Shown here: positions 6,952 through 26,198 of the stretch, in pieces
Layout: the number at the start of each line of letters is the position of its first letter
Numbering within the stretch: position 1 is the first letter of the stretch
Origin: an uncultured Acidobacteriota bacterium
GTDB lineage: Bacteria; Acidobacteriota; Terriglobia; Acidiferrales; UBA7541
Assembly (NCBI GenBank): GCA_963703805.1
Contig: CAVPFO010000002.1
Coordinates: forward strand, 54,694 to 118,693
Length of the DNA stretch: 64,000 nucleotides
Direction of reading: 5' to 3'
The notes under the pieces: model-generated
The model's input: the letters and a program-made list of their open reading frames with translations, nothing else
Told to the model about the DNA's origin: nothing
Database searches by the model: none
Program-made: the position numbers and the translations under genes

Positions 6952-6964
6952 GTCGGCAAAACAC

Positions 6965-8404: not shown

Positions 8405-8413
8405 ACCCGACCG

Positions 8414-9797
8414 ATGACGAAATCGACGACCGGCAACGGCAACTCGGACGAAGACGCGATGCTGCATCAATTGCAGCGTGAGACGTTCGAATATTTCGTG
8501 AAGGAATCCAATCTTGCCAATGGTCTTGTAAAAGACAAATCCCAGAAAGGCTCGCCTGCGAGCATCGCGGCCACAGGGCTGGCGTTGAGCGCTTACCCGG
8601 TCGGCGTCGAAAGATCCTTTATGTCGCGCGCCCACGCCGTGGAGCGAACGCTGGCTACCCTTCGTTTTTTTTGGAACAGCAAGCAGGGCACCGGTATGGA
8701 AGCGACCGGGCATCATGGCTTCTACTATCACTTCTTGAGTATGCAAACCGGAAGGCGCGTGTGGAAATGCGAGCTTTCCACCATCGATACCGCTTTGCTC
8801 CTGGCAGGAGCGCTCCTGGCGGCGAGCTACTATGATCGAAATAACAGCGAGGAACGCGAGATCCGTGATCTAGCCGATGGCTTATATCTGCGCGCCGATT
8901 GGCAATGGGCCCAAGCTGGAAAGTCCGCGGTCAGTCACGGATGGAAACCCGGCCAAGGGCGCGGATTTTTGAAATATCGCTGGCAAGGGTATAACGAAGC
9001 GCTCTTGCTAAACATACTGGGCCTGGGCTCACCGGCCCACCCGTTGCCCGAGGAAAGCTACGCGGCCTGGACCTCGGGTTTTCGGTGGGAAGATCACTTT
9101 GGGTACAGGTATCTTTACGCCGGCCCGCTTTTCATTCATCAGCTTCCCCAGGTTTGGCTCGATCTTCGCGGGATTCAGGACCGTTATATGCGCGAGAAGA
9201 GCAGCGATTACTTTGAGAACAGCCGCAGGGCGACGCTTGTTCAGCAGCAATATGCGATCCAGAATCCCCAAAAGTTCGCCAGGTATTCGGGGCATTGCTG
9301 GGGAATTACCGCGAGCGATGGGCCTGGCGATGCAACACGCCACCTCGACGGAGTGCGGCGTAGGTTTTTCGGTTATCGCGCGCGCGGGGTGCCCCGTGGA
9401 CCCGACGATGGCACGATTTCCCCTTGGGCGGCCGTCGACGTCACTCCCTTTCGCGCCAGAGGTCGTTTTGCCCACTATGCGGCACTTCGACCATTTGCGC
9501 CTTCGCGAGAATATGCCATATGGCTTCAAGGCCTCGTTCAATCCGACGTGGAGCGTCAAGGGAAATGCCAATGGTTGGGAAAGTCCGTGGCACTACGGCA
9601 TAAATCAAGGGCCCGTGGTGCTGATGATCGAGAATTACCAAACCGGCCTCATCTGGAAGTTGATGCAAAGATGTCCTTACATCGTCGAAGGATTGCGCCG
9701 AGCCGGTTTCCGGTCGCGAGGCACAGTTGCTGTCATCGCGACCGATCGGGTTCATCCGCTTTCAATAGAAGAAGAGAAGGAGCAATCCGAGCGCTAA
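8414..9797 (+). pseudogene. glucoamylase-family / beta-1,2-glucanase-like (DUF3131, GH144-like) protein with one frameshift
   Basis: The first ~340 aa are in one frame (HGFYYHFL, STIDTALLLAGALL, TISPWAAV). The conserved C-terminus (SLPFAPEVVLPTMRHF, YGFKASFNPTW, WHYGINQGPVVLMIENYQTGLIWKLM) continues in another frame from about 9437. Confidence 0.7.
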
Positions 9798-9819
9798 GCA
9801 CTTGGATTGATGGGAACCG

Positions 9820-11679: not shown

Positions 11680-12150
11680 ATGTGGATGGGAGGATTCAAG
11701 GGAAAGAGAATGCACAGGGAAACTGCCTGTAATGATATCTGCGCAGGGTGCGAAGAGTCTCGGGCTCAGCATCTCGTTATAACGATGGAGCAGCGTATGC
11801 GTTGGTCTGACTCAATGGTTGCCGTGCGGGGGGGACTGCAGTCATCAGCGCAGCATTTGGGCGGTCGTGAAATTTCGGCAATGGAGCTCGCCGGCTATTG
11901 CTCGCGGGCATGTTCTCGATTTATTTTGTTCGACTACTGGCAAGATAGCGGCACGGCCTCGAAAGAGGGCGTTCACGTGGAACTCACGAAGACACATCAA
12001 GACCTGGCGGCGGAATTAGGAACAGTGCGAGAACTCGTCTCCCGCAATCTGAGCCGACTTCAGGCTGAGGGATTCCTAGAAGTGGACGGTCGGAGAATTA
12101 TAGTGAAAGACCTCGCGGGCCTAAAAAGCGAGCAGAAGAATTCTGAGTAA
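11573..12150 (+). pseudogene. Crp/Fnr-family transcriptional regulator, apparently degraded
   Basis: The C-terminal HTH is clear (LTKTHQDLAAELGTVRELVSRNLSRLQAEGFLEVDGRRIIVKD). N-terminal cNMP-domain-like pieces (CAIFNGLNQQKL..., GKLPVMISAQGAKSLGLSI) are in a different frame ending in a stop at 11782. A G7 run lies at 11828-11834. No single frame gives a full-length protein. Confidence 0.5.
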
Positions 12151-12182
12151 TTACCTCTCCTTTTTGATATTTGCACGGCCAT

Positions 12183-12198
12183 AGTGACTTTGGTCACT
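12183..12198. promoter_or_regulatory. perfect 16-bp palindrome AGTGACTTTGGTCACT (GTGA-N6-TCAC), candidate Crp/Fnr-type operator upstream of ric
   Basis: Perfect inverted repeat about 50 nt upstream of the ric ATG. Its architecture resembles TTGA-N6-TCAA FNR/FixK boxes. Confidence 0.4.
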
Positions 12199-12246
12199 GC
12201 CTCTTTGTGCCTTCCCATCCACACTATCAGCTGTCGCGGAGGAGTT

Positions 12247-12969
12247 ATGAATTTCAATGACGAAACCAAAGTGAAGGATATTGCGCTTTCGAATCCAGCG
12301 GTCAGGCAAATTCTCGAAGAGGCCGGGCTTGACTACTGCTGCGGTGGCGGGAAATCTCTGCAAGAAGCGTGCCTGCATGCAGAGGTTCCGACTGAAGAAA
12401 TCCTGAATCGTCTGCGTGAAAACAGCAAACAGGTAAATCCCGACGAAGCGAACTGGACATCTACATCCCTTGGTGTTCTGACACGGCATATCCGTGAGAG
12501 GCACCATCGGTACGTTCGTGAGGCAATCGTGCGGGTTCAGCCCTTATTGGGTAAAGTGGTAGCAAAGCACGGAAAGAATCATTCCGAACTCACAGATATT
12601 CAGAGACTCTTCGCCGAAGTTGCGCGAGAGATGATCATGCACATGCAGAAAGAGGAACAGATTCTGTTCCCATACATCGACGCACTGGAAAAGGCGAATA
12701 GTGCAAATGGCTCGGTCGAACCTCCCTTCTTCCAGACGGTGAAAAACCCGATTCACGCCATGATGAAAGAGCATGACGCTGCGGGAGAATTGGTGAAACA
12801 GATTCGCAAAGCCAGTATGGAATACACTGCTCCTGCGGATGCATGCACAAGTTATAAGGCTCTATACCAGGATTTGAGGGAATTCGAAGCGGACCTTCAC
12901 CAGCATGTGCATCTGGAAAACAACATCCTCTTCCCCCGTTCAGTAGAGATGGAAACTGCGGTCATCTAA
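12247..12969 (+). CDS. ric: iron-sulfur cluster repair di-iron protein (RIC/YtfE/ScdA family)
   Basis: GGAGGAG RBS. N-terminal ScdA_N-like GLDYCCGG. Hemerythrin-like His/Glu motifs HHRYVRE, HMQKEEQILFP, HDAAGE, HVHLENNILFP. Confidence 0.85.
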   Translation: MNFNDETKVKDIALSNPAVRQILEEAGLDYCCGGGKSLQEACLHAEVPTEEILNRLRENSKQVNPDEANWTSTSLGVLTRHIRERHHRYVREAIVRVQPLLGKVVAKHGKNHSELTDIQRLFAEVAREMIMHMQKEEQILFPYIDALEKANSANGSVEPPFFQTVKNPIHAMMKEHDAAGELVKQIRKASMEYTAPADACTSYKALYQDLREFEADLHQHVHLENNILFPRSVEMETAVI

Positions 12970-12984
12970 GGAAGGAATGGTGCC

Positions 12985-14352
12985 ATGTCGATTTCACTCG
13001 AAGCACCAGTGATAAGCGCCAAGAGCGAGCGCCATTCCTCGCTCTCTCCTGCCCAGATAATGGAGATTGCCCGCGCGCGTGAGGCGTCTCTTTCGCGCCT
13101 TCTCATGGCTTATATCAGCTCTGGCCTTGTTTTCATGCTACTGCCAGGCACATTCCTCGGGGTGTGGAACCTTCTCCAGATCAGCGGGCGCGAGAGCGCT
13201 GGGTCCATTTCGCCTGCATGGTTACAGGCTCACGGCCATGCACAGGTGTTCGGCTGGATAGGAAGCTTTATCTTGGGCATTGGTTTCTACTCGGTTCCGA
13301 AGCTACGCGGCGCAACGAAGCCAGCCTTCGGTGCTGCCTGGGCATGCTGGGTAATGTGGACAGTGGGTGTGGCGGTACGCTGGGCCGCAAATGTTTACGC
13401 GTGGCAATGGCGTTTGCTGCTTCCGCTCTCGGGCATCCTCGAACTGGCTGCGTTCCTGATTTTCTTCAGCGCGGTTTCACAGCACCGGCCCGAAGATTCC
13501 GGCAAGAGCCGACTGGAGCCGTGGATTTGGGTGGTTATCAGCGCAAGCACGGGGTTGATGTTGACGCTGATCGCGAACCTAGCGGTATGCTTCTATCTTG
13601 CGGTGCGCGGCGCAAGCCCAGCCTTGTCACACATTCTCGACCAACGCTATCTAGTGCTGGTCGCTTGGGGATTTCTGGTGCCGTTCGTTTGGGGATTCAG
13701 TACCAAATGGATGACAGTGTTCCTTGGTCTCAAGCCGGTTCATCCCAGGCTGCTCTTGGGCGCGCTGGTGGTGAACTTTGCGGGCGTTGTTTTGACGCTC
13801 TTGGGATGGGGAGCTGAAGCAACCGCCTTCTTTGTGATCAGCACAGCTCTGGCAATTGCGGCGCTGCGAATGTTCGAACCCGCACGACAGGAGCCAAAAA
13901 CGCGCGGCGTTCATCCCAGTTTCCCATTCTTCGTCCGCATGGCCTACGGCTGGCTTTTGGTGGCAGCATTACTTGGGGTAGGCGCGGTGGTCTGGGACTC
14001 TTCTGGCGGGATTTGGGGCGCTTCGCGGCACGCACTGACGGTCGGATTCATCGCGGTGATGGTCTTTTGCGTTGGCCAGCGCATTCTCCCTGCGTTTGCT
14101 GGGATGCGGCTATTGTGGAGTACCCGGTTGATGTTTGCTGGGCTCCTGCTGCTCACGGTTGGATGCACTCTGCGTGTCTCCAGTGAGGTTCTCGCATACC
14201 AGGGATATGCCAATTGGGCGTGGTCGGTTCTTCCTGTCTCGGCTATGCTCGAATTGGCCGGGATCACAGCATTTGCCATAAACATTTCCGGTACGTTTAT
14301 TCTGGAGCCGAGTCACGTGCAGAAACAGCCCATAGTCGTAGGGATAAACTAG
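12985..14352 (+). CDS. NnrS-family membrane protein
   Basis: 455-aa polytopic membrane ORF. QAHGHAQVFGWIGSFILGIGFY resembles the conserved His-containing helix of NnrS proteins. Starts 15 nt downstream of ric. Confidence 0.7.
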   Translation: MSISLEAPVISAKSERHSSLSPAQIMEIARAREASLSRLLMAYISSGLVFMLLPGTFLGVWNLLQISGRESAGSISPAWLQAHGHAQVFGWIGSFILGIGFYSVPKLRGATKPAFGAAWACWVMWTVGVAVRWAANVYAWQWRLLLPLSGILELAAFLIFFSAVSQHRPEDSGKSRLEPWIWVVISASTGLMLTLIANLAVCFYLAVRGASPALSHILDQRYLVLVAWGFLVPFVWGFSTKWMTVFLGLKPVHPRLLLGALVVNFAGVVLTLLGWGAEATAFFVISTALAIAALRMFEPARQEPKTRGVHPSFPFFVRMAYGWLLVAALLGVGAVVWDSSGGIWGASRHALTVGFIAVMVFCVGQRILPAFAGMRLLWSTRLMFAGLLLLTVGCTLRVSSEVLAYQGYANWAWSVLPVSAMLELAGITAFAINISGTFILEPSHVQKQPIVVGIN

Positions 14353-14390
14353 GGCATGTTCAGATGGCTATTTTGAGAGAGGAGTAAGTC

Positions 14391-14801
14391 ATGAGCGATA
14401 ATCCGAAACAATCAGCCAGCTCTGCCGCCATTCGTTCTCCGGGGCCATTGGAAAGTCCTATCCTTTCGTTTGACCTGAATGCTGAGATCGAACAGTTGCG
14501 TAGTGAGAATGCGTGGCAGGGTGGACGAAACTCAAAAACTCTAGTGAAACATCCAGATTTTCGAGTAGTACTCACAGTCCTGAAAACCAATGCGCGCCTT
14601 CACGAACATAAAGCCGCCGGTAGGATTTCTGTCCAGGCTGTCGCGGGCCGCATCCGAATGCATGTACAGGACAAGGTGATTGATCTGCCTGCTGGACACA
14701 TGCTGGCATTAGAGCGCGCGCTTCCGCACGATGTGGAAGCTCTTGAAGATAGCGCTTTTCTGCTGACTATCGCTTGGCCTGAGGACGCTACTAGAGTTTG
14801 A
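14391..14801 (+). CDS. cupin-domain protein (tentative)
   Basis: 136-aa ORF with a beta-rich core (HPDFRVVLTVLKTNARLHEHKAAGRISVQAVAGRIRMHV...LPAGHMLALE...PHDVEAL) typical of small cupins. Sits within the operon. Confidence 0.5.
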   Translation: MSDNPKQSASSAAIRSPGPLESPILSFDLNAEIEQLRSENAWQGGRNSKTLVKHPDFRVVLTVLKTNARLHEHKAAGRISVQAVAGRIRMHVQDKVIDLPAGHMLALERALPHDVEALEDSAFLLTIAWPEDATRV

Positions 14802-14823
14802 CCGGGCAGTTCGCGGAGGCAAT

Positions 14824-16491
14824 ATGATCGCGCTCGATCCGGCACACAGAGCCGTCCACTATCCGCCTGATCGCCGATTTCGCATCTGGATTCGACCTTC
14901 CATTCTGCTTGGAATCGGTATCGCGGCCCTCTCTGTCATCGCGGCGGCTTGGATCGAAGTCGCCGTGGCTGGGCTGCCTCATGTTCCCGCCGTTCCTCAG
15001 ATATATCCCAATAACTTCGCAGGGCCGCGCGGGTTTCCGGTCTGGGTGCGTTACTGCCACTTCTTTAATTTCCTTTTTGTGACGATGCTGATTCGCAGCG
15101 GGCTGTCCATTCTCATGGACCATCCTCGTCTATATTTCAACGATGGCTGCACGCCGGGGAGCGAATGGATCCGGCTTACCCCGCTAAAAGTTCCGCGCGA
15201 CCGACTCTGGACCGCGAAAGACGACGCCCGCTATATTTCGCCGTTAGTCGGGACACCGGGCTACCGGCACACAATCGGTATTGCACGAGTTTGGCACTTC
15301 ATCGACGTTCACGGCTTCATTATTACTGGCATTTTGTTCGTCATTATGCTCTTCGATACAGAGCAGTGGCGGCGTATTGTGCCAACTTCGCCGCTAGTTC
15401 TCTTGCAAGCATGGAACACGTTGGTGCACTATGCGACGTTTCATCTGCCAGCAGAACCGAATGGGTTTTATGGCTACAACGCATTGCAGCAGATTGCTTA
15501 TTTCACCGTCGTCTTTGTCTTTGGTCCCTTGGCGATTCTTACTGGGATCGCCATGTCGCCCGCCGTGGTGAATCGCTTTCCCTGGTACACACGAATCTTT
15601 GGTGGCAGGCAATCGGCCAGATCGATCCACTTCCTGACGATGTTCAGCTTCCTTGCATTCCTCGTCGTACACGTCACGTTGATTGTGATGACTGGATTCG
15701 CGCGCAATATGAACCACATTGTGCTCGGCACCGATGATCAGGGACATCTGGGCATGTATCTGGGTTTTGTCGGTATAGGCGTGGTCGTCGTCTCGTGGAT
15801 CGTGGCGCACTACATCTCGTGGAACCACGCGCGTGGATTGCAGCACGCGCTCAAGTCCGTGACCTATCCGATGCAGCTTCTGACGCTGAATCGCTTGAGC
15901 CCGCAGCAGAAGTATTCAGAGGAGGAAATCTCGCCGTACTTCTGGCCGAACGGGAAAATGCCGGTCCGGGACGATTGGAAGGGCCTGGCGGAAGCTGGCT
16001 TCGAGAACTTCCGGCTCAAGGTGGGAGGCCTCGTCGAAAGGCCCGTTGAGCTTTCCCTCGCCGACCTTGAGCGGTTGGGTGGGGCCGAACACATCACCAT
16101 GCATCATTGCATTCAGGGATGGAGCGGTGTCGCGAAGTGGGGCGGAATTCCAATGAAAACGCTCATTGAATTAGTGCGCCCAAAACCGGAGGCAAAAGTC
16201 GCGGCCTTTTTTTCTTTTGGCGAAGCACTCTACGGCGGTTCCTACTACGATACGCAAAGCCTGGAGAATCTGCTGAAGCCGCAATGCCTGCTGGCCCTGC
16301 GGATGAACGGACAACGGCTTCCGCAGGTATATGGAGCGCCGCTGCGGCTGAGAGTCGAGAACCAGCTTGGCTACAAGATGGTCAAATGGATCGAGCGTAT
16401 CGAGTTCATCGAGTCGGAAAAAGTGCTCGGCAAAGGAGAAGGCGGCAAAAACGAGGACGATGAGTATTTCGATTTGCTGCCCAACATCTGA
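14824..16491 (+). CDS. fusion of a membrane cytochrome b-like domain and a sulfite-oxidase-fold molybdopterin oxidoreductase domain (MsrQ/MsrP-like architecture in one polypeptide)
   Basis: The N-terminal ~340 aa are polytopic with conserved His in helices (RYCHFFNF, VWHFIDVHGF, SIHFLTMFSF...VVHV). The C-terminus carries FRLKVGGLVERPVELSLADL...ITMHHCIQGWSGVAKWGGIP...GAPLRLRVENQLGYKMVKWI, i.e. the Mo-binding domain. Confidence 0.8.
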   Translation: MIALDPAHRAVHYPPDRRFRIWIRPSILLGIGIAALSVIAAAWIEVAVAGLPHVPAVPQIYPNNFAGPRGFPVWVRYCHFFNFLFVTMLIRSGLSILMDHPRLYFNDGCTPGSEWIRLTPLKVPRDRLWTAKDDARYISPLVGTPGYRHTIGIARVWHFIDVHGFIITGILFVIMLFDTEQWRRIVPTSPLVLLQAWNTLVHYATFHLPAEPNGFYGYNALQQIAYFTVVFVFGPLAILTGIAMSPAVVNRFPWYTRIFGGRQSARSIHFLTMFSFLAFLVVHVTLIVMTGFARNMNHIVLGTDDQGHLGMYLGFVGIGVVVVSWIVAHYISWNHARGLQHALKSVTYPMQLLTLNRLSPQQKYSEEEISPYFWPNGKMPVRDDWKGLAEAGFENFRLKVGGLVERPVELSLADLERLGGAEHITMHHCIQGWSGVAKWGGIPMKTLIELVRPKPEAKVAAFFSFGEALYGGSYYDTQSLENLLKPQCLLALRMNGQRLPQVYGAPLRLRVENQLGYKMVKWIERIEFIESEKVLGKGEGGKNEDDEYFDLLPNI

Positions 16492-17126
16492 TGCAGAGAC
16501 CCGATTGGTTCGGCCAAGAGCGTCCTGGCCCTGACCACATTCTCTCCTTACTCCGAAAGCTACGGCTGGATTGGTTGCTGCATCACTTTCCGCCACGACT
16601 CGTGCGGTCACTCTATGTGTTTGTGAATGGCTTCATTACCATTGGGGTGCTTGCCCTGTTGGCGATTGTGAGCCGCAATCCGTTTGTTTTTCCATCGCTC
16701 GGACCCACTGCGTATCTCCTGTTCTTCTCGCCGCTCGGAAAAACGTCCAGCCCCCGAAATACTATTCTGGGGCACGCTATAGGACTCATCTGCGGTTATG
16801 CGGCGTTCGTTCTCACAGGCGCTGGAGCACTACCGTTTGGGGTGCACCCAGGTATCTTCTGGCCAAGGATCCTGGCTGCGGCTCTCTCGCTTTCGGCGAC
16901 AGGCGCGTTCATGGTCCTACTGGATGTCAGCCATCCGCCCGCTGGCGCAACTACGCTAATCGTTTCTCTCGGAATTATTTCGAGACCGCGTGAACTGGTT
17001 ATCATTGAAGTTGCAGTGTTCTTGCTCGTTGCTCAGGCTTTGGTAATCAATCGGCTCGCCGGATTACCCTACCCCATGTGGAATGCTGCGGCCTCGACCA
17101 AACCAGTGAATGAGGACTCGGATTAG
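16491..17126 (+). CDS. HPP-family membrane protein
   Basis: Signature DVSHPPAGATTLIV. The ATG overlaps the upstream TGA (TGATG at 16489-16493). Confidence 0.8.
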   Translation: MQRPDWFGQERPGPDHILSLLRKLRLDWLLHHFPPRLVRSLYVFVNGFITIGVLALLAIVSRNPFVFPSLGPTAYLLFFSPLGKTSSPRNTILGHAIGLICGYAAFVLTGAGALPFGVHPGIFWPRILAAALSLSATGAFMVLLDVSHPPAGATTLIVSLGIISRPRELVIIEVAVFLLVAQALVINRLAGLPYPMWNAAASTKPVNEDSD

Positions 17127-17146
17127 CGCCCCATCCCGTCACTTGG

Positions 17147-17500
17147 CTACACCGTGGAGCGTTGAAGAAGTGCACGCAGCACAACGGCTTGGTTGCGCCG
17201 TTCGTCACGGGCCGAATAGATCAGCGTTATCGTGAGATATGCCTTTTCCAGTTCTCGGAACTGTTCAGTTAATTCTGCCTTTGCTCTCAACTCTTCGCGA
17301 TAGCGCTTCTGAAATTCGATCCAGCGCTTGGCATCGTGCGCAAACCACTTGCGGAGTTGGTCGGACGGTGCAATCTCCTTCATCCACAGATCGATTCTAG
17401 CTTTCTCTTTTGAAACACCACGCGGCCAAATCCTGTCCACCAGGACTCGGTAGCCATCGGCTGGCTTGGCCGGAACATAAATTCGCTTAAGCTTGAACAT
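17147..17500 (-). CDS. DUF488 (YeaO-like) family protein
   Basis: MFKLKRIYVPAKPADGYRVLVDRIWPRGVSKEKARIDLWMKEIAPSDQLRKWF is typical of DUF488/YeaO proteins. Confidence 0.8.
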   Translation of the reverse strand: MFKLKRIYVPAKPADGYRVLVDRIWPRGVSKEKARIDLWMKEIAPSDQLRKWFAHDAKRWIEFQKRYREELRAKAELTEQFRELEKAYLTITLIYSARDERRNQAVVLRALLQRSTV

Positions 17501-17520
17501 CGCGGAGTCCTATCAGCAGG

Positions 17521-17607
17521 CGCGCCCCCTGTGCCAAAAGTGTGCCAGAATCCGACCTTTTCATGCAATTGGGGTTAGCTTTGAGCGAAAAGCAGATGTC
17601 CCAAGTT
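17521..17607. repeat. direct repeat copy A (~87 nt, contains the 30-nt core at 17566-17595)
   Basis: Aligns by hand with 23636-23721. The core CAATTGGGGTTAGCTTTGAGCGAAAAGCAG is identical in both copies. Confidence 0.9.
17531..17547 (-). promoter_or_regulatory. TGGCAC-N5-TGGCAC motif (sigma54 -24/-12-like, GG-N10-GC) upstream of the DUF488 gene
   Basis: The minus strand reads CTGGCACACTTTTGGCAC about 30 nt upstream of the DUF488 ATG. The same motif is conserved in repeat copy B (23645-23661). Confidence 0.3.
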
Positions 17608-17667
17608 CAGATTATTCTAAAGAAACTTCGAAAGGGATCATAGAGGTTTTGGGTTCTTCCCCGTATT

Positions 17668-18213
17668 TCAATCTGTAGCCGGTGCGGACTTGGCCTTCAT
17701 TCGATCTTGGATTTCGTCGAAGTGCCAAGGGCGAAAATCGTGAGTGTCCACTCCAACATCCATCGAAAGTGAAGTATCGGGGGCCAACAGTTTTCCGTGG
17801 GAGTGCCCATACAAATGCCAAGCTCCCCGCGATGACTGATTCCAGACTCTCATTGCATAGTGGCAGAGCACGATTCGTTGCCCATTGAGCGAGACTTCCG
17901 CGAGATCATTGAGCCACGCAAATTCCTGAGTAAGTTTGCGCGTTTCTTTGTCATGGTTTCCCGCGAGTGCAAATATCTTCTTGCAGCGAATCTGTTGGCG
18001 AAGCTCCGCAGCTCGTGCCTTTGGGCCGATGCAGAAATCTCCGAGGAAGTACAGAATATCGTTCGCTTTTACACGCGAGTTCAGGCGTTCTAAAATCTCT
18101 TGATTCATTTCCTCGACAGTTTGGAACGGGCGATTGCAGTATCGAATGATGTTCTTGTGCCCCAGATGAAAGTCGGCGGTGAACCAAATGTTGAGCACAG
18201 CTCGTTTCTCCAA
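17668..18213 (-). CDS. metallophosphoesterase (calcineurin-like)
   Basis: Metal-binding motifs DFHLGH, LGDF, GNHD and GHSHG in canonical order. Confidence 0.8.
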   Translation of the reverse strand: MEKRAVLNIWFTADFHLGHKNIIRYCNRPFQTVEEMNQEILERLNSRVKANDILYFLGDFCIGPKARAAELRQQIRCKKIFALAGNHDKETRKLTQEFAWLNDLAEVSLNGQRIVLCHYAMRVWNQSSRGAWHLYGHSHGKLLAPDTSLSMDVGVDTHDFRPWHFDEIQDRMKAKSAPATD

Positions 18214-18252
18214 TAAGGTACACGGAATGAGTATTCTATGCCGGGAGGTGAG

Positions 18253-18489
18253 ATGAGCAAGTCCAATCGCACAGACGCAACAGGTTCAATTGCTTCGTCC
18301 GGCGACGAACGTCCATGGACAGTTCAGCAAGCCGCTCAATTCCTTGGTGTGAGCCCACAAACTGTCTATCTATGGGTGGAGCGAAAGCAAATCCCCCATT
18401 TGCGCGTAATGGGCCGAAATATTCGCTTCCTCAGATCAGACCTAGAAACGTTCCGTGCCTCATTCAAACAAGACATAGACAAGGTTTAG
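18253..18489 (+). CDS. excisionase-family helix-turn-helix DNA-binding protein
   Basis: WTVQQAAQFLGVSPQTVYLWVERKQIPHLRVMGRNIRFLRSDLETF matches the excisionase/MerR-like HTH pattern. GGGAGG RBS before ATG 18253; the ORF also opens at ATG 18238. Confidence 0.7.
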   Translation: MSKSNRTDATGSIASSGDERPWTVQQAAQFLGVSPQTVYLWVERKQIPHLRVMGRNIRFLRSDLETFRASFKQDIDKV

Positions 18490-18674
18490 GTGGTTACAAC
18501 ACGCAGGCACGGCTCTTGCGGCTGAAAGCGGATCGCAATGGGCTGTTCCCGTACCGTTCATCTGGCTCAACTATGTGCTAACGCAGGCGGACTTCAATTG
18601 GGGGTAAAGGGCGTTATTATCCGTATTGACTGAAATCACCGAGGGCGCGTTCCTCGCTGTCTGGAAAAACTCTA

Positions 18675-19139
18675 ATGATCCCCATGAACGAAACATACAT
18701 GCTCGACACGAACGTTTTTAACGCCGTGCTTGATGGGAGGGTATTACTGGCGTCGTCCGTGGGCCGTATTCTCCTTGTTACCGGCATCCAAAGGGATGAA
18801 TTAGGCGCTACCGCAAAACCCGAAAGACGCGCGGCTCTTCTCGCGGTATATAGGGAGATCCGTCCCACCTCGCTGCCCGCGTCTAGCTTCGCTTTCGATA
18901 TCGAAGGTGCCGGTTTCGATCAAGCCTATTGGAACGACGGGAGTGGAAACTTTGAGAAGATGGTTGCTCGACTCCGGCAACTCGACCACAAGAACAAAAG
19001 CACATCCAACCAAGTGCGAGATATTTTAATCGCTGAGACAGCAATAAAGAATCGAGCGACTTTAGTCAGCGGGGATTCCAACTTACGGCAGGTGGTTACT
19101 GAATTCGGAGGCAACGCCATAGACCCGGATGATCTATGA
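18675..19139 (+). CDS. PIN-like (VapC-like) domain protein
   Basis: N-terminal YMLDTNVFNAVL and C-terminal RDILIAETAIKNRATLVSGDSNL match the first and last acidic PIN motifs. No antitoxin-sized ORF upstream. Confidence 0.6.
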   Translation: MIPMNETYMLDTNVFNAVLDGRVLLASSVGRILLVTGIQRDELGATAKPERRAALLAVYREIRPTSLPASSFAFDIEGAGFDQAYWNDGSGNFEKMVARLRQLDHKNKSTSNQVRDILIAETAIKNRATLVSGDSNLRQVVTEFGGNAIDPDDL

Positions 19140-19915
19140 ATGAACTTAGCGGCGCAGAGCGTTTCGAGCAGCTTTCAGACGAAAACAAAGCGCGTTACCT
19201 GGCGATTAATCGGCAGATGGTCCGACTCGCGAGAGATTATGCGGTCCCTATTATCTTCGCTCCTCCGCCAAGCGTCGGAGGCAAAATTAACGGGGCGAGC
19301 GGCTGTGTGGTGCAACTTGCCTCGGGCCTGTTTGTTGTCACTGCTTCCCACGTTTTGGCGGGTTACGAAAAGCGTGCGGCAGAAGGAGAGCGGCTTAACT
19401 GGCAAGTCGGCAACCTCCCTCCCTTCGATCCGCTCCCCCGCGTCGAGTGGAGGAGCCGTGAGAAGGATATAGTGCTCCTGCGCATTTCCGGGAATGAAGC
19501 ACGCAACATCGGACCTTGTACCATTTCGGCTCCTCGGCGCTGGCCGGTACAACCTCCAAAGGAGGGACAATTAGTGCTGGTAGCCGGTTACCCGAAAGGG
19601 TTGCGAGAAGAAAACCCATCTGAGGCGTGGATCGGTTCGGGTCCTTATTCGGCAATATTTCGAGTAACCGTTGCGGAAGCCAACCGCTGCAAATGCCTGA
19701 TTGAGCGCAGAAACCTTATCGGCTTCGAAGAAGGACGTTTGCCCGAGGCGGGCGCGGATATGGGCGGATTGAGCGGCGGGCCGGTGTTGCTAGTTGACAC
19801 TTTCGACTTCCCGCTAATCGGCATTGTGACCGACCGTTGCGAAATGAGTCTCGCAGAGCTGGAAATTCTCCAGTTTGCGACTCTTGAAAATGTAATGATT
19901 GGCGAGGATTCCTGA
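19136..19915 (+). CDS. trypsin-like (S1 family) serine protease
   Basis: His-Asp-Ser triad contexts VVTASHVLAG, EKDIVLLRI, MGGLSGGPVLL. The ATG overlaps the PIN-like gene stop (ATGA, 19136-19139). Confidence 0.7.
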   Translation: MNELSGAERFEQLSDENKARYLAINRQMVRLARDYAVPIIFAPPPSVGGKINGASGCVVQLASGLFVVTASHVLAGYEKRAAEGERLNWQVGNLPPFDPLPRVEWRSREKDIVLLRISGNEARNIGPCTISAPRRWPVQPPKEGQLVLVAGYPKGLREENPSEAWIGSGPYSAIFRVTVAEANRCKCLIERRNLIGFEEGRLPEAGADMGGLSGGPVLLVDTFDFPLIGIVTDRCEMSLAELEILQFATLENVMIGEDS

Positions 19916-19953
19916 ACGATCCACGACCAGGCGCACAGGGACGATTCGTTCTC

Positions 19954-21195
19954 TTAGCCCGGAACGAGAGCAACTTCGCCATCGGTCATGCGCAAAGTGC
20001 CAAAGAGTTTGTCTCCGGCTGCCATCTCCGTCGGTGACGACGGCGGCGACGGCCTGATCGTAAGCCCCACCTCATAACCGGCCTTCTCGCGGTCAATGAC
20101 AATCAAGCAGTGGGTTTTACCAAAGAATGCCATCGCGGCGATCATCAAAATCTGCGTTCGTTTATTCAACTCCTCGGGTTCAATGCCCGCACAGGAGCCG
20201 AACACAAATACCCACTCGGGCTTGGAGTCGAAGTGCAGCGCCCTGTAAGTGAATCCGTCCTTAGAATCACCGAACTTCTCGATTGCTCCAAGGAACGCGC
20301 TGCCAAGTTCCGATCTCTCTCGCAAACCCAAGCTCGCAAGCACGGCCTGCATCTTCAAATAATTAGCGCGGCTATCGGGCGCGTCGTATCGCGCAAGGGC
20401 CTCGGGGGATAGTCCCGCCGCGTAGTCGTCCCGGCGGGTCGCGAGCTGATCCGCAACATGCTCAACCAACCTGCCGTTCAGATCATGTTCTCGCTTCGAT
20501 CTCAAAGCCTGGCGCAATTCATCGCGCTGCGCCGCGACTGCGATGGCTGCGTCGGCCTTCCCCGCGCAGCCAGCCAAGCTGCCGCGTTGCAACAGGTAGA
20601 ACTCGAACAGCGCCCGCTCATCGCCAATGACTCGAAGATCCGAATACGGCAAAGCGCGCCTGGCATCCAGGTAAGCGAGAACTTCCGGCGCGGTTCGTAG
20701 CTCAATCGCAATGTTTAGAAAATCATTCAGTGAAAGATACGTGATCGGCGTACCGTGGTACTGCAACGGAAGATCGTCGGCCCGCGCGTTCAGATCGACG
20801 CGCTCGAATACCTCCACAAGCACGATGCCGTGGTTGATGTCCGGCAATCCATCGGGAAGCTCGACCCTCCCTCTGCGTGGATGGTCGCACCAGATCGGCT
20901 TACCGTGCGCAGTGCGCAACGCACCGCAAAGCTGCGAGGTCGCTCTCTTCGCCTCCTTCAAACCCCACGACGAAGTTTTTTCTGGAGTGCGGGCGAAAGG
21001 GTCCAGTTGCGTCTTCTGGGACATCAATATGCCAACGCCAGGATAGGCGACGAGCAAATCCGCAACTTCCTTTTGCGTTCCACCGTTCATGGTTTGCAGG
21101 CTGCGAAACACGAACTCGGATATGAACGGCAGTGCGAGAAAATCCCTCACGTATCGCTCGGCCCAGATCCCGCGTTCCTCTAACGCTTCCGACAT
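19954..21195 (-). CDS. hypothetical protein with N-terminal NERD/PD-(D/E)xK-like nuclease motif
   Basis: 413-aa ORF. KEVADLLVAYPGVGILMSQKTQ resembles the NERD pattern (E.D.L....G....E.K) with SQK in place of ExK. The rest has no recognisable domain. Confidence 0.45.
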   Translation of the reverse strand: MSEALEERGIWAERYVRDFLALPFISEFVFRSLQTMNGGTQKEVADLLVAYPGVGILMSQKTQLDPFARTPEKTSSWGLKEAKRATSQLCGALRTAHGKPIWCDHPRRGRVELPDGLPDINHGIVLVEVFERVDLNARADDLPLQYHGTPITYLSLNDFLNIAIELRTAPEVLAYLDARRALPYSDLRVIGDERALFEFYLLQRGSLAGCAGKADAAIAVAAQRDELRQALRSKREHDLNGRLVEHVADQLATRRDDYAAGLSPEALARYDAPDSRANYLKMQAVLASLGLRERSELGSAFLGAIEKFGDSKDGFTYRALHFDSKPEWVFVFGSCAGIEPEELNKRTQILMIAAMAFFGKTHCLIVIDREKAGYEVGLTIRPSPPSSPTEMAAGDKLFGTLRMTDGEVALVPG

Positions 21196-21272
21196 AATTG
21201 CTTCTTCACCTCTCTCCTGGGAATAGCTTATTTCGATCAGTCGATTCTGGTCAATGCCGATCCATACCCCAG

Positions 21273-21328
21273 ATGGCGAGATTGTGGCGAGAATATGGTA
21301 GAATTGTGGCGAGATTAGAGGCGAGATT
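21273..21328 (+). repeat. five tandem ~11-nt repeats (consensus RTGGCGAGATT) abutting the fic start codon
   Basis: ATGGCGAGATT / GTGGCGAGAAT / ATGGTAGAATT / GTGGCGAGATT / AGAGGCGAGATT, followed by ATGGCGAAGAA, which contains the fic ATG (21329). Confidence 0.85.
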
Positions 21329-22471
21329 ATGGCGAAGAAATATGTCCACGAACTTCGTGAGTGGCCCGGATTTACATGGGATTCAAAGAGGCTTGCCTCT
21401 TTGCTATCCGATGTCCGGTTGCGTCAGGGATTGTTGGTCGGGAAGATGCGTGGCTATGGCCTCGCTTCCCGGTGGACCGCGACCTTAAAAGTTCTTACCG
21501 AAGAAACGATTAAGTCCAGCGCAATAGAAGGCGTGAAGCTTGATCCAGAAAACGTGCGTTCTTCCCTCGCTCGGCGGCTTGGGCTTGAGGTGGGTGGGCT
21601 CACAGCGCACAAGGATCGAACCGTGGATGGCGTAGTTGAAATGATGTTGGACGCGACACAACAATTCAGCAAGCCGCTAACAAAGGAACTGTTGTTCGAG
21701 TGGCACGCGCATCTCTTTCCGGGCGTTCGCACGACGCGCGATAAATTCCGAGTTGGCGCATGGCGTGATGACAGCCAGGGCCCAATGCAAGTCGTGTCTG
21801 GGCCAGTCGGTCGTCACAAGGTTCATTACGAAGCGCCTACGGCTGATCGCGTCGAGGGCGAGATGGGAAAGTTTCTCGCGTGGTTCGACGGCAACGAACA
21901 AGAAGATCCCCTCCTAAAGGCGGGAATTGCGCATTTGTGGTTCGTAACGATCCACCCGTTTGAGGACGGCAACGGCAGAATCGGAAGAGCAATCGCTGAA
22001 ATGTGTTTGGCCAGATCTGATGGGAGCGCTCAGCGCTTTTACAGTATGTCCTCGCAAATTCTCGAAGATCGGAAGGACTACTACGAAGTTCTTGAGAGAA
22101 CGCAGGCAGGTCGGCTAGACATCACGGAATGGCTGACGTGGTTCCTCGGTTGCTTGGATAGGGCCATCGAGCAATCGAATCAAATCACCAGCAGCGCTCT
22201 GGAGAAGGAATTGTTCTGGAAAGGTTTGACGCAAAGGAAAGTCTCTCTCAATCATCGGCAAAACAAAGTCCTGAACAAGTTATTCGGAGAGTTTGAAGGA
22301 AAGCTGACGAGAGAAAAGTGGATGAAAATGACTAAGGCTTCCTCTCGTACTGCCCTTCGAGATATCGAAGAACTGATTGCCCTGGGAGTTTTGGAACAAG
22401 AGGAAGCGGGAGGGAGGAGCACTTCCTACAGGCTAAATAGGATCGTCAGGCAGACAGAAGGACGCAAATGA
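21329..22471 (+). CDS. Fic/DOC-family protein (class II, N-terminal inhibitory helix)
   Basis: Core motif HPFEDGNGRIGRAIAE. Inhibitory motif S...EG (SSAIEG) lies upstream of the core. DUF4172-like N-terminus (REWPGFTWD). C-terminal winged-helix-like tail. Confidence 0.9.
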   Translation: MAKKYVHELREWPGFTWDSKRLASLLSDVRLRQGLLVGKMRGYGLASRWTATLKVLTEETIKSSAIEGVKLDPENVRSSLARRLGLEVGGLTAHKDRTVDGVVEMMLDATQQFSKPLTKELLFEWHAHLFPGVRTTRDKFRVGAWRDDSQGPMQVVSGPVGRHKVHYEAPTADRVEGEMGKFLAWFDGNEQEDPLLKAGIAHLWFVTIHPFEDGNGRIGRAIAEMCLARSDGSAQRFYSMSSQILEDRKDYYEVLERTQAGRLDITEWLTWFLGCLDRAIEQSNQITSSALEKELFWKGLTQRKVSLNHRQNKVLNKLFGEFEGKLTREKWMKMTKASSRTALRDIEELIALGVLEQEEAGGRSTSYRLNRIVRQTEGRK

Positions 22472-22477
22472 ACTTCG

Positions 22478-23626
22478 GTGAGCAAGAACGTGACCGGTAG
22501 AAACGAACAGTGTCCCTGTGGTAGCGGCAAAAAGTTCAAGAAATGCTGCCTAGAGAAACCCCGAGTAATTCCCGCAGGACCACCGCCGGAAGTCTTCATG
22601 AAAGCAGCTTTACAAATGAGACAGAAGCAACAGGCACAGGAGGATTGGATTGCGCGGTACGGCCACGTAAGACCTGTGATCGCGACGGATAACTGGGGTA
22701 AGAAGTTCGTCGCCATTCGCAACCGACTGTCGTACTCAGAAGCTTGGAAGTTCATACCGGATTTTCTGCTCGACTATGTTCCACACGTATTTGGAAAAGA
22801 TTGGTGGGACGCAGAGGTAGCTAAACCGGAAGGCGAGAGGCACCAAGTATTTCAGTGGCGGGTGGGTTGCCTGCGTCACAAGCAGGCTGGCGTTAATGAT
22901 GGCGAGAAACGAATAGTAATGCCGGATGGCATGACTGGGGCCTATTTGTCCTTCGCGTTCAATCTGTTCGCGATAGAGGACAACAGCAGATTAGACGACC
23001 TCTTACTTCATAGGCTGAAGCACCCCGAGCAGTTTCAAGGAGCTTTACATGAAATCTTCGCGGAAGCCACTTGTCTGCGTGCCGGTTTTACAATCGAAAA
23101 GGAAGACGAGCGTGACCCTTCGACACGACACGCGGAGTTTACGGCAACGCATAAGATTACAGGTGAACGATTCTCAGTTGAGGCAAAGAGCAAACACAGG
23201 CCCGGTGTTCTTGGGCAAGCAGGGGTCGCACAACCGCATGAGAAGCTCAGGCTCACATTTGGTCGGCTCATCAATGACGCCGCCGCGAAAAATCCTAAGC
23301 ATCCTCTGGTGATTTTTCTCGACACTAACTTGCCATTCCGTTCGGCACACCATGTCTACGGTAACGATCCAGCCGTTCCATCGCGATATATTGCAGAGCT
23401 TTGTAAGCGCATCCGCAACGAACACGGCGGACAATATCCTTTCGTCATGTTGGCGCTCACGAACATTCCGCACCACTACGCCGCCGCTCATGAAACCGAC
23501 CCTCCAAAACACATTCACTCGATGATGACGGAACATCCGGCTACAAGCAAAGGTCAAGCTTTGACGGCTCTTTACAATGCCGTTCCGCTGTACGGAAACA
23601 TACCCAACGAGTTTCCAAGATTCTGA
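22478..23626 (+). CDS. SEC-C metal-binding motif protein with PD-(D/E)xK-like nuclease core
   Basis: N-terminal CPCGSGKKFKKCC. Central HEIFAEATCLRAGF...RHAEFTATHKITGERFSVEAKSK resembles a restriction-endonuclease-fold E...(D/E)xK core. GTG start 7 nt after the fic stop. Confidence 0.75.
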   Translation: MSKNVTGRNEQCPCGSGKKFKKCCLEKPRVIPAGPPPEVFMKAALQMRQKQQAQEDWIARYGHVRPVIATDNWGKKFVAIRNRLSYSEAWKFIPDFLLDYVPHVFGKDWWDAEVAKPEGERHQVFQWRVGCLRHKQAGVNDGEKRIVMPDGMTGAYLSFAFNLFAIEDNSRLDDLLLHRLKHPEQFQGALHEIFAEATCLRAGFTIEKEDERDPSTRHAEFTATHKITGERFSVEAKSKHRPGVLGQAGVAQPHEKLRLTFGRLINDAAAKNPKHPLVIFLDTNLPFRSAHHVYGNDPAVPSRYIAELCKRIRNEHGGQYPFVMLALTNIPHHYAAAHETDPPKHIHSMMTEHPATSKGQALTALYNAVPLYGNIPNEFPRF

Positions 23627-23635
23627 CGGCAGACA

Positions 23636-23721
23636 CGCGCCGCTGTGCCAGAACTGTGCCAAAACCTTACCTTTTCGATCAATTGGGGTTAGCTTTGAGC
23701 GAAAAGCAGGCTCCCCAAGTT
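23636..23721. repeat. direct repeat copy B (~86 nt, contains the 30-nt core at 23680-23709)
   Basis: See copy A. Starts 10 nt after the SEC-C gene stop. Carries GTGCCAGAACTGTGCCA (23645-23661). Confidence 0.9.
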
Positions 23722-24061
23722 GTTGAAAAGATTGAAAACGCAAACCAACAAATGGAAGCGGTGAAGTGGCGAATCGCCCTCAGAAGGTAGACGCTGCAAA
23801 GTCTGGTCGATGGGCTGAGATATTTCTCCACGGTCCCGTATCCTCTGGATTTGTTCTTCGGAAAACCGTAGCCACTCAGCTTAAAACGCAACCACGCGGG
23901 CCTGCTCCAGATCGTAGCTCGGCATATCGGAGATCGTTGAGCCGCGTACATCAGAAGTTGGGAACAAGTTGGGAACAATAACCGCCGAATACCCCCATAA
24001 ACCGTGATATAAGATGCGCGAAAGACATGGACGAGACAACTACTTAGCGTTTTAGAGTTTA

Positions 24062-24107
24062 CCTTGGGCGCAGGAGGCCTGGAGTTCGAATCTCCACGCC
24101 CCGACCA
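24062..24107 (+). pseudogene. orphan 3' fragment of tRNA-Pro(UGG): anticodon loop through CCA, no 5' half
   Basis: Reads CTTGGGC (loop with U33, anticodon TGG, G37), GCAGG, AGGCC, T arm TGGAG-TTCGAAT-CTCCA, acceptor strand CGCCCCG, discriminator A, CCA. The upstream sequence cannot pair with GCAGG or CGCCCCG. Confidence 0.8.
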
Positions 24108-24278
24108 ATTCAGCTTGCCTTCGAGGACACAACTCCAAAGTGTGCAAAGCAGGTGGGGGCGGGATCGGGCACGGAACACGCGTATTTTTGTCGCATCGTC
24201 CGCACTCCGTACGCAACGGACGATACGATCGGCACCCAGGTTGACAATGTAACGAAGTGGTGTGAGAGTCGTGCGAAC

Positions 24279-24752
24279 ATGACCGCTTCTCACGTGTTGT
24301 TGCTCGCCCTTTTAATCGGCATCCTCTCCGGCTTGCGCGCGCTGAGCCCTATTGCGGTGACGGCTTGGGGCGCTTACCTAGGATGGTTCAATCTGCCGCG
24401 GCCGTATTCGCTGATCGGCACGATCGCTGGCGTGGCGATTCTTTCGCTGGCGGCAATCGCCGAACTCGTAAACGACAAGCTGCCAAAAACACCGCCGCGC
24501 ACGGCACCGCCAAGCGTGGTGATTCGCTGCCTGCTCGGCGCGTTTGCAGGAGCGTGCATCGCAATGGCTGGCATGCAAAGCGCGATTGCGGGAGCAGGCG
24601 CGGGCATTGTGGGAGGGCTAATCGGCACATTTGGCGGTTATCAGGTGCGGATGCGGCTCGTGAAGGCGCTCGGCACGCCGGATTTTCCCATCGCGATCCT
24701 CGAAGATCTTGTCACGATTCTCGGCTCGCTGTGGGTAGCCAGCCGGTTCTAA
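24279..24752 (+). CDS. DUF4126-family membrane protein
   Basis: Glycine/alanine-rich polytopic ORF (LLIGILSGLRALSPIAVTAW..., AIAELVNDKLPKTP, GGLIGTFGGYQVR). ATG 24279 chosen over the longer ORF that opens at 24153. Confidence 0.65.
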   Translation: MTASHVLLLALLIGILSGLRALSPIAVTAWGAYLGWFNLPRPYSLIGTIAGVAILSLAAIAELVNDKLPKTPPRTAPPSVVIRCLLGAFAGACIAMAGMQSAIAGAGAGIVGGLIGTFGGYQVRMRLVKALGTPDFPIAILEDLVTILGSLWVASRF

Positions 24753-24806
24753 TTGCCACGGGCAATCGCTCGATCACATCCATATTTCCCTTCCGGGAGA
24801 CCTAGC

Positions 24807-26198
24807 ATGAGTCCTTCCAAGCATTACGACGCGATTGTGATCGGCTCGGGCCAAGGAGGCACTCCGCTGTGCCAGGCGCTGGCCGAGGCCGGCATGCGCA
24901 CGGCTTTGGTGGAGCGCGAACATATCGGCGGCACCTGCATCAACGAAGGTTGCACGCCGACAAAAACCATTATCGCGAGCGGCCGCGTGGCATATCTCAC
25001 GCGGCGAGGGGCCGATTACGGAGTGAAGAGCGGCGCCCTACACATTGCGATGGAACGCATCCGGAAGCGAAAACGCGATATTGTGAAACAGTTTCGCACC
25101 GGCAGCGAAAAGCGCATTCAGAAAACTGCCCGGCTGGATTTGATCTACGGAGAGGCGGCATTCGCGGGAGCGGAATCGCTGGAGGTACGCCTACGAAAAG
25201 GAGGCGTAACGACTCTTCATGCCGAGCGCATTTTTATCAATGCGGGTTGCCGGCCCGCCATTCCTGCGCTGGATGGATTGAAAGACGTGCCGTTTCTCGA
25301 TAGCACTTCGATTATGGAGCTCGCACGCGTGCCTCAGCACTTATTGGTTCTCGGTGGCGGGTACGTTGGCCTGGAATTCGGGCAATTGTTTCGGCGGTTG
25401 GGCAGCCGGGTAACGATCGTGCAGAACGGAACGCAACTCCTGGCGCGAGAGGATGAAGACGTTGCTAAGGAGGTGGCCAAAATTCTGAAAGAAGATGGGG
25501 TAGAGGTGCTGTTAAACACGAAAGCGGAAAGCGTGGCACGCTCGCGTTCGGAAATCGCTTTAAAAGTGCGATCCAAGCGAGGTGCACGCACGATCGTGGG
25601 GACGCACCTGCTGGTGGCTACTGGCCGCGTGCCCAATACGGAGGTTCTGCGCCTGGCCGCGGCAGGCATCGCGACGGACAAACGCGGCTTTATTCCCGTG
25701 GACAACAAACTGCAAACGAATGTGAGCGGCGTGTTCGCGTTGGGAGACATCAACGGCGGCCCGGCGTTTACGCACATTTCTTACGACGATTTTCGGATCG
25801 TACGCACGAATGTGATCGAAAAGGGCAGCGCAACGACCACGCATCGGCTTGTTCCCTACACCGTATTCATGGACCCGCAATTGGGGCGCGTAGGTCTGAC
25901 AGAAGCGCAAGCGCGCGAAGAAGGGCGCAAGATTCGCGTGGCGAAAATGCCGATGACGTATGTGGCCCGCGCAGTGGAAACCGCCGAAACGCGAGGCTTT
26001 ATGAAAGCCGTCGTTGACGCCTCCACCGATCAAATCCTGGGTGCGGCAGTTCTAGGAATCGAAGGCGGAGAGATTATGAGCCAACTGGAGATCGCGATGA
26101 TGGGCAAGCTACCCTATCCCGTGCTGAAGGATGCCGTGTTTGCGCACCCGACACTGGCGGAATCGTTGAATAACCTCTTCGGCCACTTTGAGAGCTGA
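24807..26198 (+). CDS. class I FAD-dependent pyridine nucleotide-disulfide oxidoreductase
   Basis: YDAIVIGSGQGG FAD motif. Redox-active GGTCINEGCTPTK (CxxxxC). Second Rossmann LLVLGGGYVGLEFGQ. C-terminal dimerisation region with AHPTLAE. GGGAGA RBS before ATG 24807. Confidence 0.85.
   Translation: MSPSKHYDAIVIGSGQGGTPLCQALAEAGMRTALVEREHIGGTCINEGCTPTKTIIASGRVAYLTRRGADYGVKSGALHIAMERIRKRKRDIVKQFRTGSEKRIQKTARLDLIYGEAAFAGAESLEVRLRKGGVTTLHAERIFINAGCRPAIPALDGLKDVPFLDSTSIMELARVPQHLLVLGGGYVGLEFGQLFRRLGSRVTIVQNGTQLLAREDEDVAKEVAKILKEDGVEVLLNTKAESVARSRSEIALKVRSKRGARTIVGTHLLVATGRVPNTEVLRLAAAGIATDKRGFIPVDNKLQTNVSGVFALGDINGGPAFTHISYDDFRIVRTNVIEKGSATTTHRLVPYTVFMDPQLGRVGLTEAQAREEGRKIRVAKMPMTYVARAVETAETRGFMKAVVDASTDQILGAAVLGIEGGEIMSQLEIAMMGKLPYPVLKDAVFAHPTLAESLNNLFGHFES

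Follow-up and report, generated by a model that had tools for sequence, protein, structure and literature searches.

A displaced tRNA-Pro(UGG) 3' half very probably marks the outer attachment site of stacked integrative elements in an uncultured Acidobacteriota genome

How does the 3' half of a tRNA gene come to stand alone in a bacterial chromosome, and what does it mark there? The piece in question, 46 nt on the plus strand (CCTTGGGCGCAGGAGGCCTGGAGTTCGAATCTCCACGCCCCGACCA), lies in a 64-kb stretch of DNA (the window; contig C2:54694-118693) from the six-contig, 4.6-Mb assembly G000, and corresponds to the 3' half of tRNA-Pro(UGG), positions 31-76 plus CCA, without a 5' partner (Table 1). ARAGORN finds no tRNA in the window, and neither does Rfam at the gathering threshold. 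At E<=10, the Rfam tmRNA model matched a T-arm-sized stretch around the fragment, and this and the other weak matches at the site (snoRNA, lncRNA) were dismissed as chance or as T-arm-only. A scan of the 150 nt upstream for pairing partners gave at best 5/7 pairs with the acceptor strand (at -124) and 4/5 with the anticodon stem. The cloverleaf of a functional tRNA, with acceptor and anticodon stems, is not formed, and since the fragment lacks a 5' partner it is not a gene. It is an end fragment in the sense of the Islander signature, running from position 31 to CCA, and not an internal piece. An earlier note on this DNA had described an orphan 3' half of tRNA-Pro(UGG) that is not a gene, in a window without intact tRNA-Pro and without integrase; the sequence, ARAGORN, Rfam and the pairing scan agree on the first point, and ARAGORN and Pfam on the second.

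We consider it very probable that integrative elements have stacked up in the single-copy chromosomal tRNA-Pro(UGG) gene and that the fragment forms the core of their attR. A P4-like tyrosine integrase encoded on contig C1 (int424) would recombine the element attP, in which tRNA positions 31-76 stand between a 109-nt P arm and a P' arm overlapping the integrase 3' end, with the tRNA gene. Strand exchange would take place in or beside the anticodon loop, the gene would be regenerated as a chimera of host 5' half and element 3' half, and the previous host 3' half would come to lie past the element P arm, at the insert's far end. Repeated insertions would build a stack, here a 40-kb ICE bearing a type IV secretion system (T4SS) and ending at a second orphan half (copy A), followed by a 38.5-kb integrase-less mosaic ending at the fragment. 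Insertion of integrase-carrying elements would have displaced the fragment ~80 kb from the gene, and the outermost fragment would preserve the pre-insertion, genus-typical T arm. This reading draws on the anatomy of the fragment, the homology of its arm, the linkage between integrase and tRNA, synteny, and a T arm that is inherited together with the element, all of which we observed.

Table 1. Features at and around the orphan tRNA-Pro(UGG) half, in window coordinates
Feature	Position	Strand	Basis
Right-hand 24 kb of the 38.5-kb island segment without integrase	1..23952	.	Pfam; homology to neighbouring ICE
M arm copy 2, holding repeat copy A of the earlier note	17515..17607	-	
M arm copy 3, holding repeat copy B of the earlier note (23640-23721); tandem TTGGCACAG motifs	23636..23756	-	
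P arm, element side of putative attR, 109 nt	23953..24061	+	Conserved with copy A and relatives' int424-type attR
Two tandem AGTTGGGAACA repeats, candidate arm-type integrase-binding sites	23956..23977	+	5 genome-wide occurrences, three att arms
19-nt block CCTTGGGCGCAGGAGGCCT, putative strand-exchange zone including anticodon loop	24062..24080	+	Same in C1 gene, copy A and fragment
Displaced tRNA-Pro(UGG) 3' half, putative core and host side of attR, outer end of island array	24062..24107	+	Sequence; no tRNA call; 46/46 in congeners
C31 of fragment	24062		
Anticodon loop CTTGGGC (anticodon UGG) of fragment	24063-24069		
3' anticodon-stem strand GCAGG of fragment	24070-24074		
Variable loop AGGCC (5 nt) of fragment	24075-24079		
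T arm TGGAG-TTCGAAT-CTCCA of fragment, perfect	24080-24096		
Acceptor strand CGCCCCG of fragment	24097-24103		
A73 of fragment	24104		
CCA of fragment	24105-24107		
131 nt between fragment and conserved chromosome	24108..24238	.	No congener match
Chromosomal flank, DUF4126 gene and pyridine-nucleotide disulfide oxidoreductase	24239..26198	+	92% to G010; Pfam

The sole complete, credible tRNA-Pro(UGG) of the genome lies on C1 (complement 4902-4980). A genome-wide tRNA search, as proposed in the earlier note, therefore recovers the intact gene, but on another contig and not upstream in the window. It agrees with the fragment over the 19 nt at the fragment's start (CCTTGGGCGCAGGAGGCCT) and the 12 nt at the fragment's end, whereas the T arm of the gene differs (TCGCGG-TTCAAAT-CCGCGA) and has one extra base on each side of the stem, which makes a 79-nt gene. 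The Rfam tRNA model gives this gene 50 bits, as against 65.7-66.3 bits for the 77-nt genes of relatives. A 78-nt form with the extra base on the 3' side only adjoins a 97%-identical int424 in another MAG (L059). The integrase itself is a 424-aa protein (Pfam Phage_integrase, 1.7e-20) encoded on the opposite strand and ending 16 nt past the tRNA 3' end, and is followed downstream by a VirB11-type ATPase, a type IV coupling protein (T4CP) and the contig end; int424 on C1 is thus the integrase beside a regenerated tDNA, in the Islander sense, for the whole array. The C1 gene is very probably a chimera of host 5' half and element 3' half with an unusual T stem. The comparison of the fragment with the 3' 46 nt of the genome's own gene, which the earlier note had named as a check, has two sides: the match to that gene is not good (19 + 12 nt, with a different T arm), and the match to the genes of congeners is far beyond chance. 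The fragment would differ from the resident gene because the latter now has an element-derived T arm.

The congeners supply the missing counterpart. The fragment alone matches the 3' part of their intact tRNA-Pro(UGG) genes at 46/46 positions (E=1.6e-17), and when the 5' half of the C1 gene is joined to the fragment, the resulting 77-mer is identical (77/77) to the intact tRNA-Pro(UGG) in G017, G002, G009 and G018 and 99% identical in four further congeners, compared with 91% for the resident C1 gene. These matches support the view that the fragment is the genus-typical 3' half as it was before insertion. The intact gene is assembled on C1 and the fragment on C2, and a single contig of one relative, the 69%-complete MAG G010, joins both loci in the right orientation. 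This contig carries, in order, a homolog of C1:19712-4826 (92% identical) including tRNA-Pro and 76 nt past it, 4.6 kb of unrelated DNA downstream of tRNA-Pro, and a homolog of C2:78932-82789 (92% identical) that starts 131 nt right of the fragment. Therefore, the C1 tRNA-Pro and the right flank of the fragment are ancestral neighbours in the expected orientation, and the synteny comparison that the earlier note had called for places the ancestral tRNA-Pro locus next to that flank; the chromosomal flank in Table 1 appears to be the ancestral downstream neighbourhood of tRNA-Pro(UGG). G013 was rejected as a further witness, its flank homolog being 71% identical and in another context. The 131 nt directly right of the fragment have no match in 18 congeners, and no terminator-like site was found in them. 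There may have been an older outer element, since deleted, in which case the T arm of the fragment would be 'previous' and not 'native'.

Left of the fragment, the P arm is conserved with the corresponding arm of copy A (C2:40145-40253) and with the attR of G003, G004, G041, G042, G043 and G045. The homology starts exactly at the tandem repeats, and the DNA farther left is unrelated. The repeated 11-mer, AGTTGGGAACA, occurs 5 times in the 4.6-Mb genome, every time within one of three att arms: on the downstream side of the C1 tRNA, where the pair lies ~65-86 nt downstream of the intact gene inside the int424 3' end; left of copy A; and left of the fragment. The repeats are also kept beside 17/17 int424 homologs. 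Copy A, detected by BLAST with the fragment and its flanks, occupies C2:40145-40303, 14.4 kb left of the window start; its left ~110 nt are roughly 95% identical to those of the fragment, its T arm is of a third type (TCCGG/CCGGA), and to its right stands a remnant of about the last 18 integrase codons (LFLIVPKLHHNAATPESG vs LFPTVPNLHHNAAGTETG). Beyond this remnant there is no integrase gene right of copy A, where DUF2252, Mn catalase and DUF892 genes are found instead. No integrase or P'-arm remnant lies right of the 46-nt fragment. With an element arm, a core and a host side, and without an integrase remnant, the fragment therefore has the anatomy of an attR.

Copy A has the look of a place where two elements meet, or of a fossil attP. 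It may be the latter in a hybrid ICE in which the module of an unrelated integrase, int380, replaced the original one for integration, since the similarity between C1 and C2 stops exactly at the VirB11 3' end. That similarity limit, and the P arm, core and P'-arm/integrase remnant of copy A, lend some plausibility to a comparable account of the fragment, namely that it, too, would be a fossil attP, with P arm and tRNA-like core, that travelled as a passenger in an element inserted by another route. We consider this quite unlikely: the fragment's T arm is genus-typical, its right side lacks the P'-arm and integrase remnant seen at copy A, and 131 nt on begins chromosome that in G010 is downstream of tRNA-Pro in the same orientation. 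Another conceivable origin, one that needs no integrase, would be a duplicate tRNA-Pro gene in decay, its 5' half removed by a random deletion. The fragment alone cannot tell deletion from recombination, and the window is without an integrase; however, the tRNA break falls at position 31/32 in the fragment, in copy A and in the attR sites of at least six other genomes, joined in every case to the same 109-nt arm with its arm-type repeats. Since the junction recurs across genomes and random deletion would not recreate it, we regard this origin as effectively refuted. Returning to the fragment as attR, int424 acting in trans could plausibly still use the site, because the core and both arm repeats are intact; any such remaining recombination competence is, like the order of the insertions, inferred.

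The relatives show what lies at either end of an int424-type element. In the genome collection, all int424 homologs of at least 81% identity (17/17) are followed, 18 nt past the stop codon, by a tRNA-Pro(UGG) 3' part, belonging to a full gene in 15 cases and to a copy-A-like half in 2; the MAGs that carry them belong to uncultured Acidobacteriota, Terriglobia or 'Ca. Acidiferrales'. G003 (OY969905.1), a closed genome, contains a 42-kb element that runs from tRNA-Pro/int424 through C2-like T4SS genes to a homologous P arm and an orphan half. The same pair of ends, a tRNA/int424 junction and a P arm with a half, lies on one contig in direct orientation in G041 (42 kb apart), G042 (47 kb), G043 (104 kb) and G045 (40 kb), so that int424 elements bounded by the P arm span 40-104 kb in these five relatives. 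'P arm plus 3' half' is therefore the far end of int424-type elements. As a side observation, the contigs of int424 loci L057, L058, L060, L064, L065 and L067, like C1 of G000, break 1-6 kb into the ICE head; such recurrent breaks near int424 in independent long-read MAGs hint at multi-copy heads or at population heterogeneity, for example through excision.

The T arm locates the crossover. Beside int424, the T arm varies by locus (TCCGG, TGCGG, CGCGG, CGCGG+A and TGGAG), and loci with a common variant have element sides that are 76-99% identical (93-99% within an integrase sub-lineage) and host flanks without detectable similarity. Since a shared T arm goes with alike element sides and unrelated host flanks, the T arm travels with the element; the exchange therefore falls on the 5' side of the T arm, within or beside the anticodon loop. 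The outermost orphan would consequently keep the pre-insertion 3' half. T arms differ between regenerated gene and displaced fragment in G003, G041 and G045 as well. An attR in which the fragment bears the element T arm, and the resident gene that of the host, would require a crossover 3' of the T arm, at a T-loop/acceptor 'J' site. The tRNA-like identity does reach the 3' end, which makes a 3'-side crossover formally possible, and G010, G003 and G014 have the TGGAG arm beside int424-type P' arms. Yet the same T-arm variants accompany near-identical element sides in unrelated host contexts, the T stem of the resident 79-nt gene is aberrant, with two extra bases, and has its 78-nt kin form beside a 97%-identical int424, and on its left the tRNA-like segment borders directly on the anticodon loop, like sites of the Islander 'A' class (PMC4383910). 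A 'J'-site crossover is accordingly very unlikely in our judgement. For the anticodon-loop 'A' class speak both the left edge, at 31/32 in all attR copies, and the co-segregation of the T arm with the element; the exact 7-bp overlap we infer. Arm homology, T-arm co-inheritance and synteny support the proposal of the earlier note that a tyrosine-integrase crossover at the anticodon loop left the fragment at the distal end of an island.

The DNA between copy A and the fragment measures 38.5 kb (starting at C2:40301), with att-like sites at both ends and no integrase bar the 18-codon remnant. Both options entertained in the earlier note apply to it: the island exceeds 24 kb, the bounded segment being 38.5 kb, and its proximal end is deleted, in that the recombination module is gone and ~18 integrase codons are left beside copy A. 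By Pfam, the part within the window encodes a TPP enzyme, gluconate-2-dehydrogenase/GMC oxidoreductase, SDR, GH39 and GH15 proteins, then RIC/hemerythrin, NnrS-like, Mo-oxidoreductase-cytochrome b fusion and HPP proteins, and finally metallophosphoesterase, PIN, peptidase, Fic and SEC-C proteins. The whole segment is a mosaic of stress/catalase genes, a GAF histidine kinase, carbohydrate and oxidoreductase genes, the RIC-NnrS-Mo-enzyme-HPP cluster, and the PIN, peptidase, Fic and SEC-C genes. Window positions 17580-18478 and 21273-22456 have homologs in C2:34245-36426, at the neighbouring ICE's right end, and the last ~3 kb of the segment plus its arm are 85-95% identical to that end, so the two are diverged relatives and not a recent duplication. 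Separately, the first 2.4 kb past copy A (C2:40480-42863; DUF2252 and Mn catalase) are 89% identical, in inverted orientation, to C2:300478-298094, which adjoins tRNA-Lys(UUU) (complement 300715-300789) and suggests a related island at that gene.

Left of copy A, the 40-kb element at C2:144-40145 encodes VirB4, VirB6/8, VirB9, VirB10, VirB11 and T4CP. Its stretch C2:144-16458 holds integrase, VirB11, T4CP, VirB6/8, TrbI, CagX and VirB4, and the element ending at copy A thus combines the integrase, type IV secretion system and coupling protein of an ICE. C1 breaks off within an ICE head. The first bases of C2 fall in another tRNA-Pro 5' half, of opposite orientation and beside int380, and for this reason a plain join of reverse-complemented C1 to the C2 start, as a canonical tandem array, was rejected. 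The T4CP-VirB11 head is present in three diverged copies (on C1, on C2 and, frameshifted, on C5), and the assembled T4SS body in one. A collapsed identical repeat behind the C1 and C5 breaks was likewise rejected, these copies being 95-98% and 91-94% identical to the C2 copy up to the contig ends. A search of the other contig ends for the missing 3' half of the C2-start tRNA found none. Neither the contig breaks nor the ambiguity of copy A affects the reading of the fragment as the terminal attR. Elsewhere in the genome, C5:1544950-1653620 holds tRNA-Pro(CGG) beside a 40%-identical int424 paralog (C5:1545248-1546393), with three orphan 3' halves downstream of it (~C5:1622430, 1650122 and 1653606), and looks like another stacked island array.

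A second family of elements has left its traces in the same DNA. The 82-nt repeats at window positions 17526-17607 and 23640-23721, pointed out in the earlier note, are real and have a third copy at C2:51040-51203; in reverse complement they belong to a conserved 'M arm' of ~165 nt with tandem TTGGCACAG motifs, oriented in the window opposite to the 46-nt fragment. Further copies lie at C2:292509-292593 and at C5:5223-5384, the latter with a tRNA-Pro anticodon-loop remnant; on the same contig, C5:1-5400 carries the frameshifted T4CP-VirB11 head, then an integrase (3756-4796) and a co-oriented tRNA-Met (4914-4990). The better-preserved M arms are always joined to a 12-16-nt anticodon stem/loop piece, (CC)TGCCTTGGGCG(C), and in G011 and G004 the M arm is fused directly to orphan tRNA-Pro(UGG) 5' halves. 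The 380-aa tyrosine integrase int380 (C2:144-1286) is unrelated to int424, has an M-arm motif after its stop codon, and reads towards a tRNA-Pro(UGG) 5' half on the minus strand, truncated by the C2 start; this half is preceded by ~97 nt of native-like upstream flank. Among int380 homologs, 28/30 are followed by a full co-oriented tRNA-Pro(UGG) ~103 nt past the stop codon; G047, a closed genome, has an orphan 5' half together with an M arm 38 kb upstream on that strand, and in G048, where there is also an M site inside, this arrangement spans 19 kb. These arrangements point to int380 elements as a rarer type that would regenerate the 5' half of tRNA-Pro(UGG) at the same anticodon loop, with the M arm as their probable distal arm. 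The earlier note's suggestion of successive insertions at the locus therefore holds, whereas its repeat copy B is not another copy of the fragment's att site: it would be an int380-type distal arm, and two families are involved. As candidates for an integrase beside repeat copy B in the window, two ORFs were rejected, one of 382 aa being a SEC-C-motif protein and one of 380 aa Fic. A 204-aa antisense ORF across the fragment (23679-24293) was taken as spurious; it is not conserved at copy A, and the conserved M arm covers its 3' end alone.

On CAVWJK010000003.1 (L058/L113; ~9.4-12.0 kb), int424 and int380 flank a single tRNA-Pro(UGG), of which both halves are probably element-derived. This contig is labelled Solirubrobacteraceae yet has an Acidobacteriota-type tRNA, and may be mis-binned. 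It is conceivable, though we hold it only tentatively and at somewhat less than even chances, that the tRNA-Pro(UGG) anticodon loop in these Acidobacteriota is a landing pad common to two unrelated tyrosine-integrase families acting on opposite sides. In such a case, int424-type elements would swap the 3' half, and int380-type elements would swap promoter and 5' half and leave orphan 5' halves fused to the M arm.

Classes of tDNA sublocation were reportedly laid out by Williams in 2002. In the Islander collection of islands in tRNA and tmRNA genes, which includes tyrosine integrases at an anticodon-centred 'A' site (Hudson, Lau & Williams 2015; PMC4383910), 3,760 of 3,919 islands have a 3' fragment and 159 of 3,919 a 5' fragment, 2,083 islands are at site A and 125 are tandem arrays (Table 1 of PMC4383910). 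The present locus resembles these islands in its regenerated tDNA and displaced 3' fragment at the island ends, in the integrase adjoining the regenerated gene, in a fragment reaching from the anticodon loop to the 3' end, and in tandem arrays. It differs in that the segment at the fragment has no integrase, so that the Islander integrase filter alone would reject it, and in that scars left by a family regenerating the 5' half are interspersed in the array, whose host is an uncultured Acidobacteriota MAG. In pSAM2 of Streptomyces ambofaciens and other actinomycete elements in tRNA-Pro, att identity extends from the anticodon loop to the 3' end. The isoacceptor family, the sublocation and the identity block from the anticodon loop through CCA are the same here; however, the integrases are unrelated at the level tested, Streptomyces matches to int424 being 28-55% identical over partial lengths, and the T arm within the identity block is heterogeneous between attP and attB. 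ICEs of the ICESt1/ICESt3 type are known for accretion and for cis-mobilizable elements (CIMEs). Here too, an att-flanked segment without integrase stands in tandem with an ICE that itself codes for the cognate integrase family, and composite excision of the 38.5-kb segment is conceivable by analogy, but this segment is a mosaic with scars of another family and not a simple deletion derivative.

Taken by itself, a 3' fragment at an anticodon-loop site is a textbook tDNA-island boundary; the integrase/ICE family in uncultured Acidobacteriota is newly described, and T-arm replacement, element stacking and a second family regenerating the 5' half of the same gene are instructive and not unprecedented. 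For annotation pipelines, the locus illustrates that a displaced fragment may fit the genes of relatives better than the genome's own gene. The fragment sets the right-hand boundary of ~80 kb or more of horizontally acquired DNA in the genome of an uncultured soil Acidobacteriota, and window positions 1-24061 are therefore island DNA and not core genome. The locus also offers a clean natural case in which tDNA-targeting elements have altered a portion of an essential tRNA gene and piled up as mosaics. Were the anticodon loop indeed a landing pad for both integrase families, an essential resident gene could end up wholly element-derived, as on CAVWJK010000003.1, its T arm would turn over with each insertion, sometimes to sub-optimal forms such as the 79-nt gene, and orphan halves within islands may serve as secondary targets, giving rise to the inverted, nested layout of C2.
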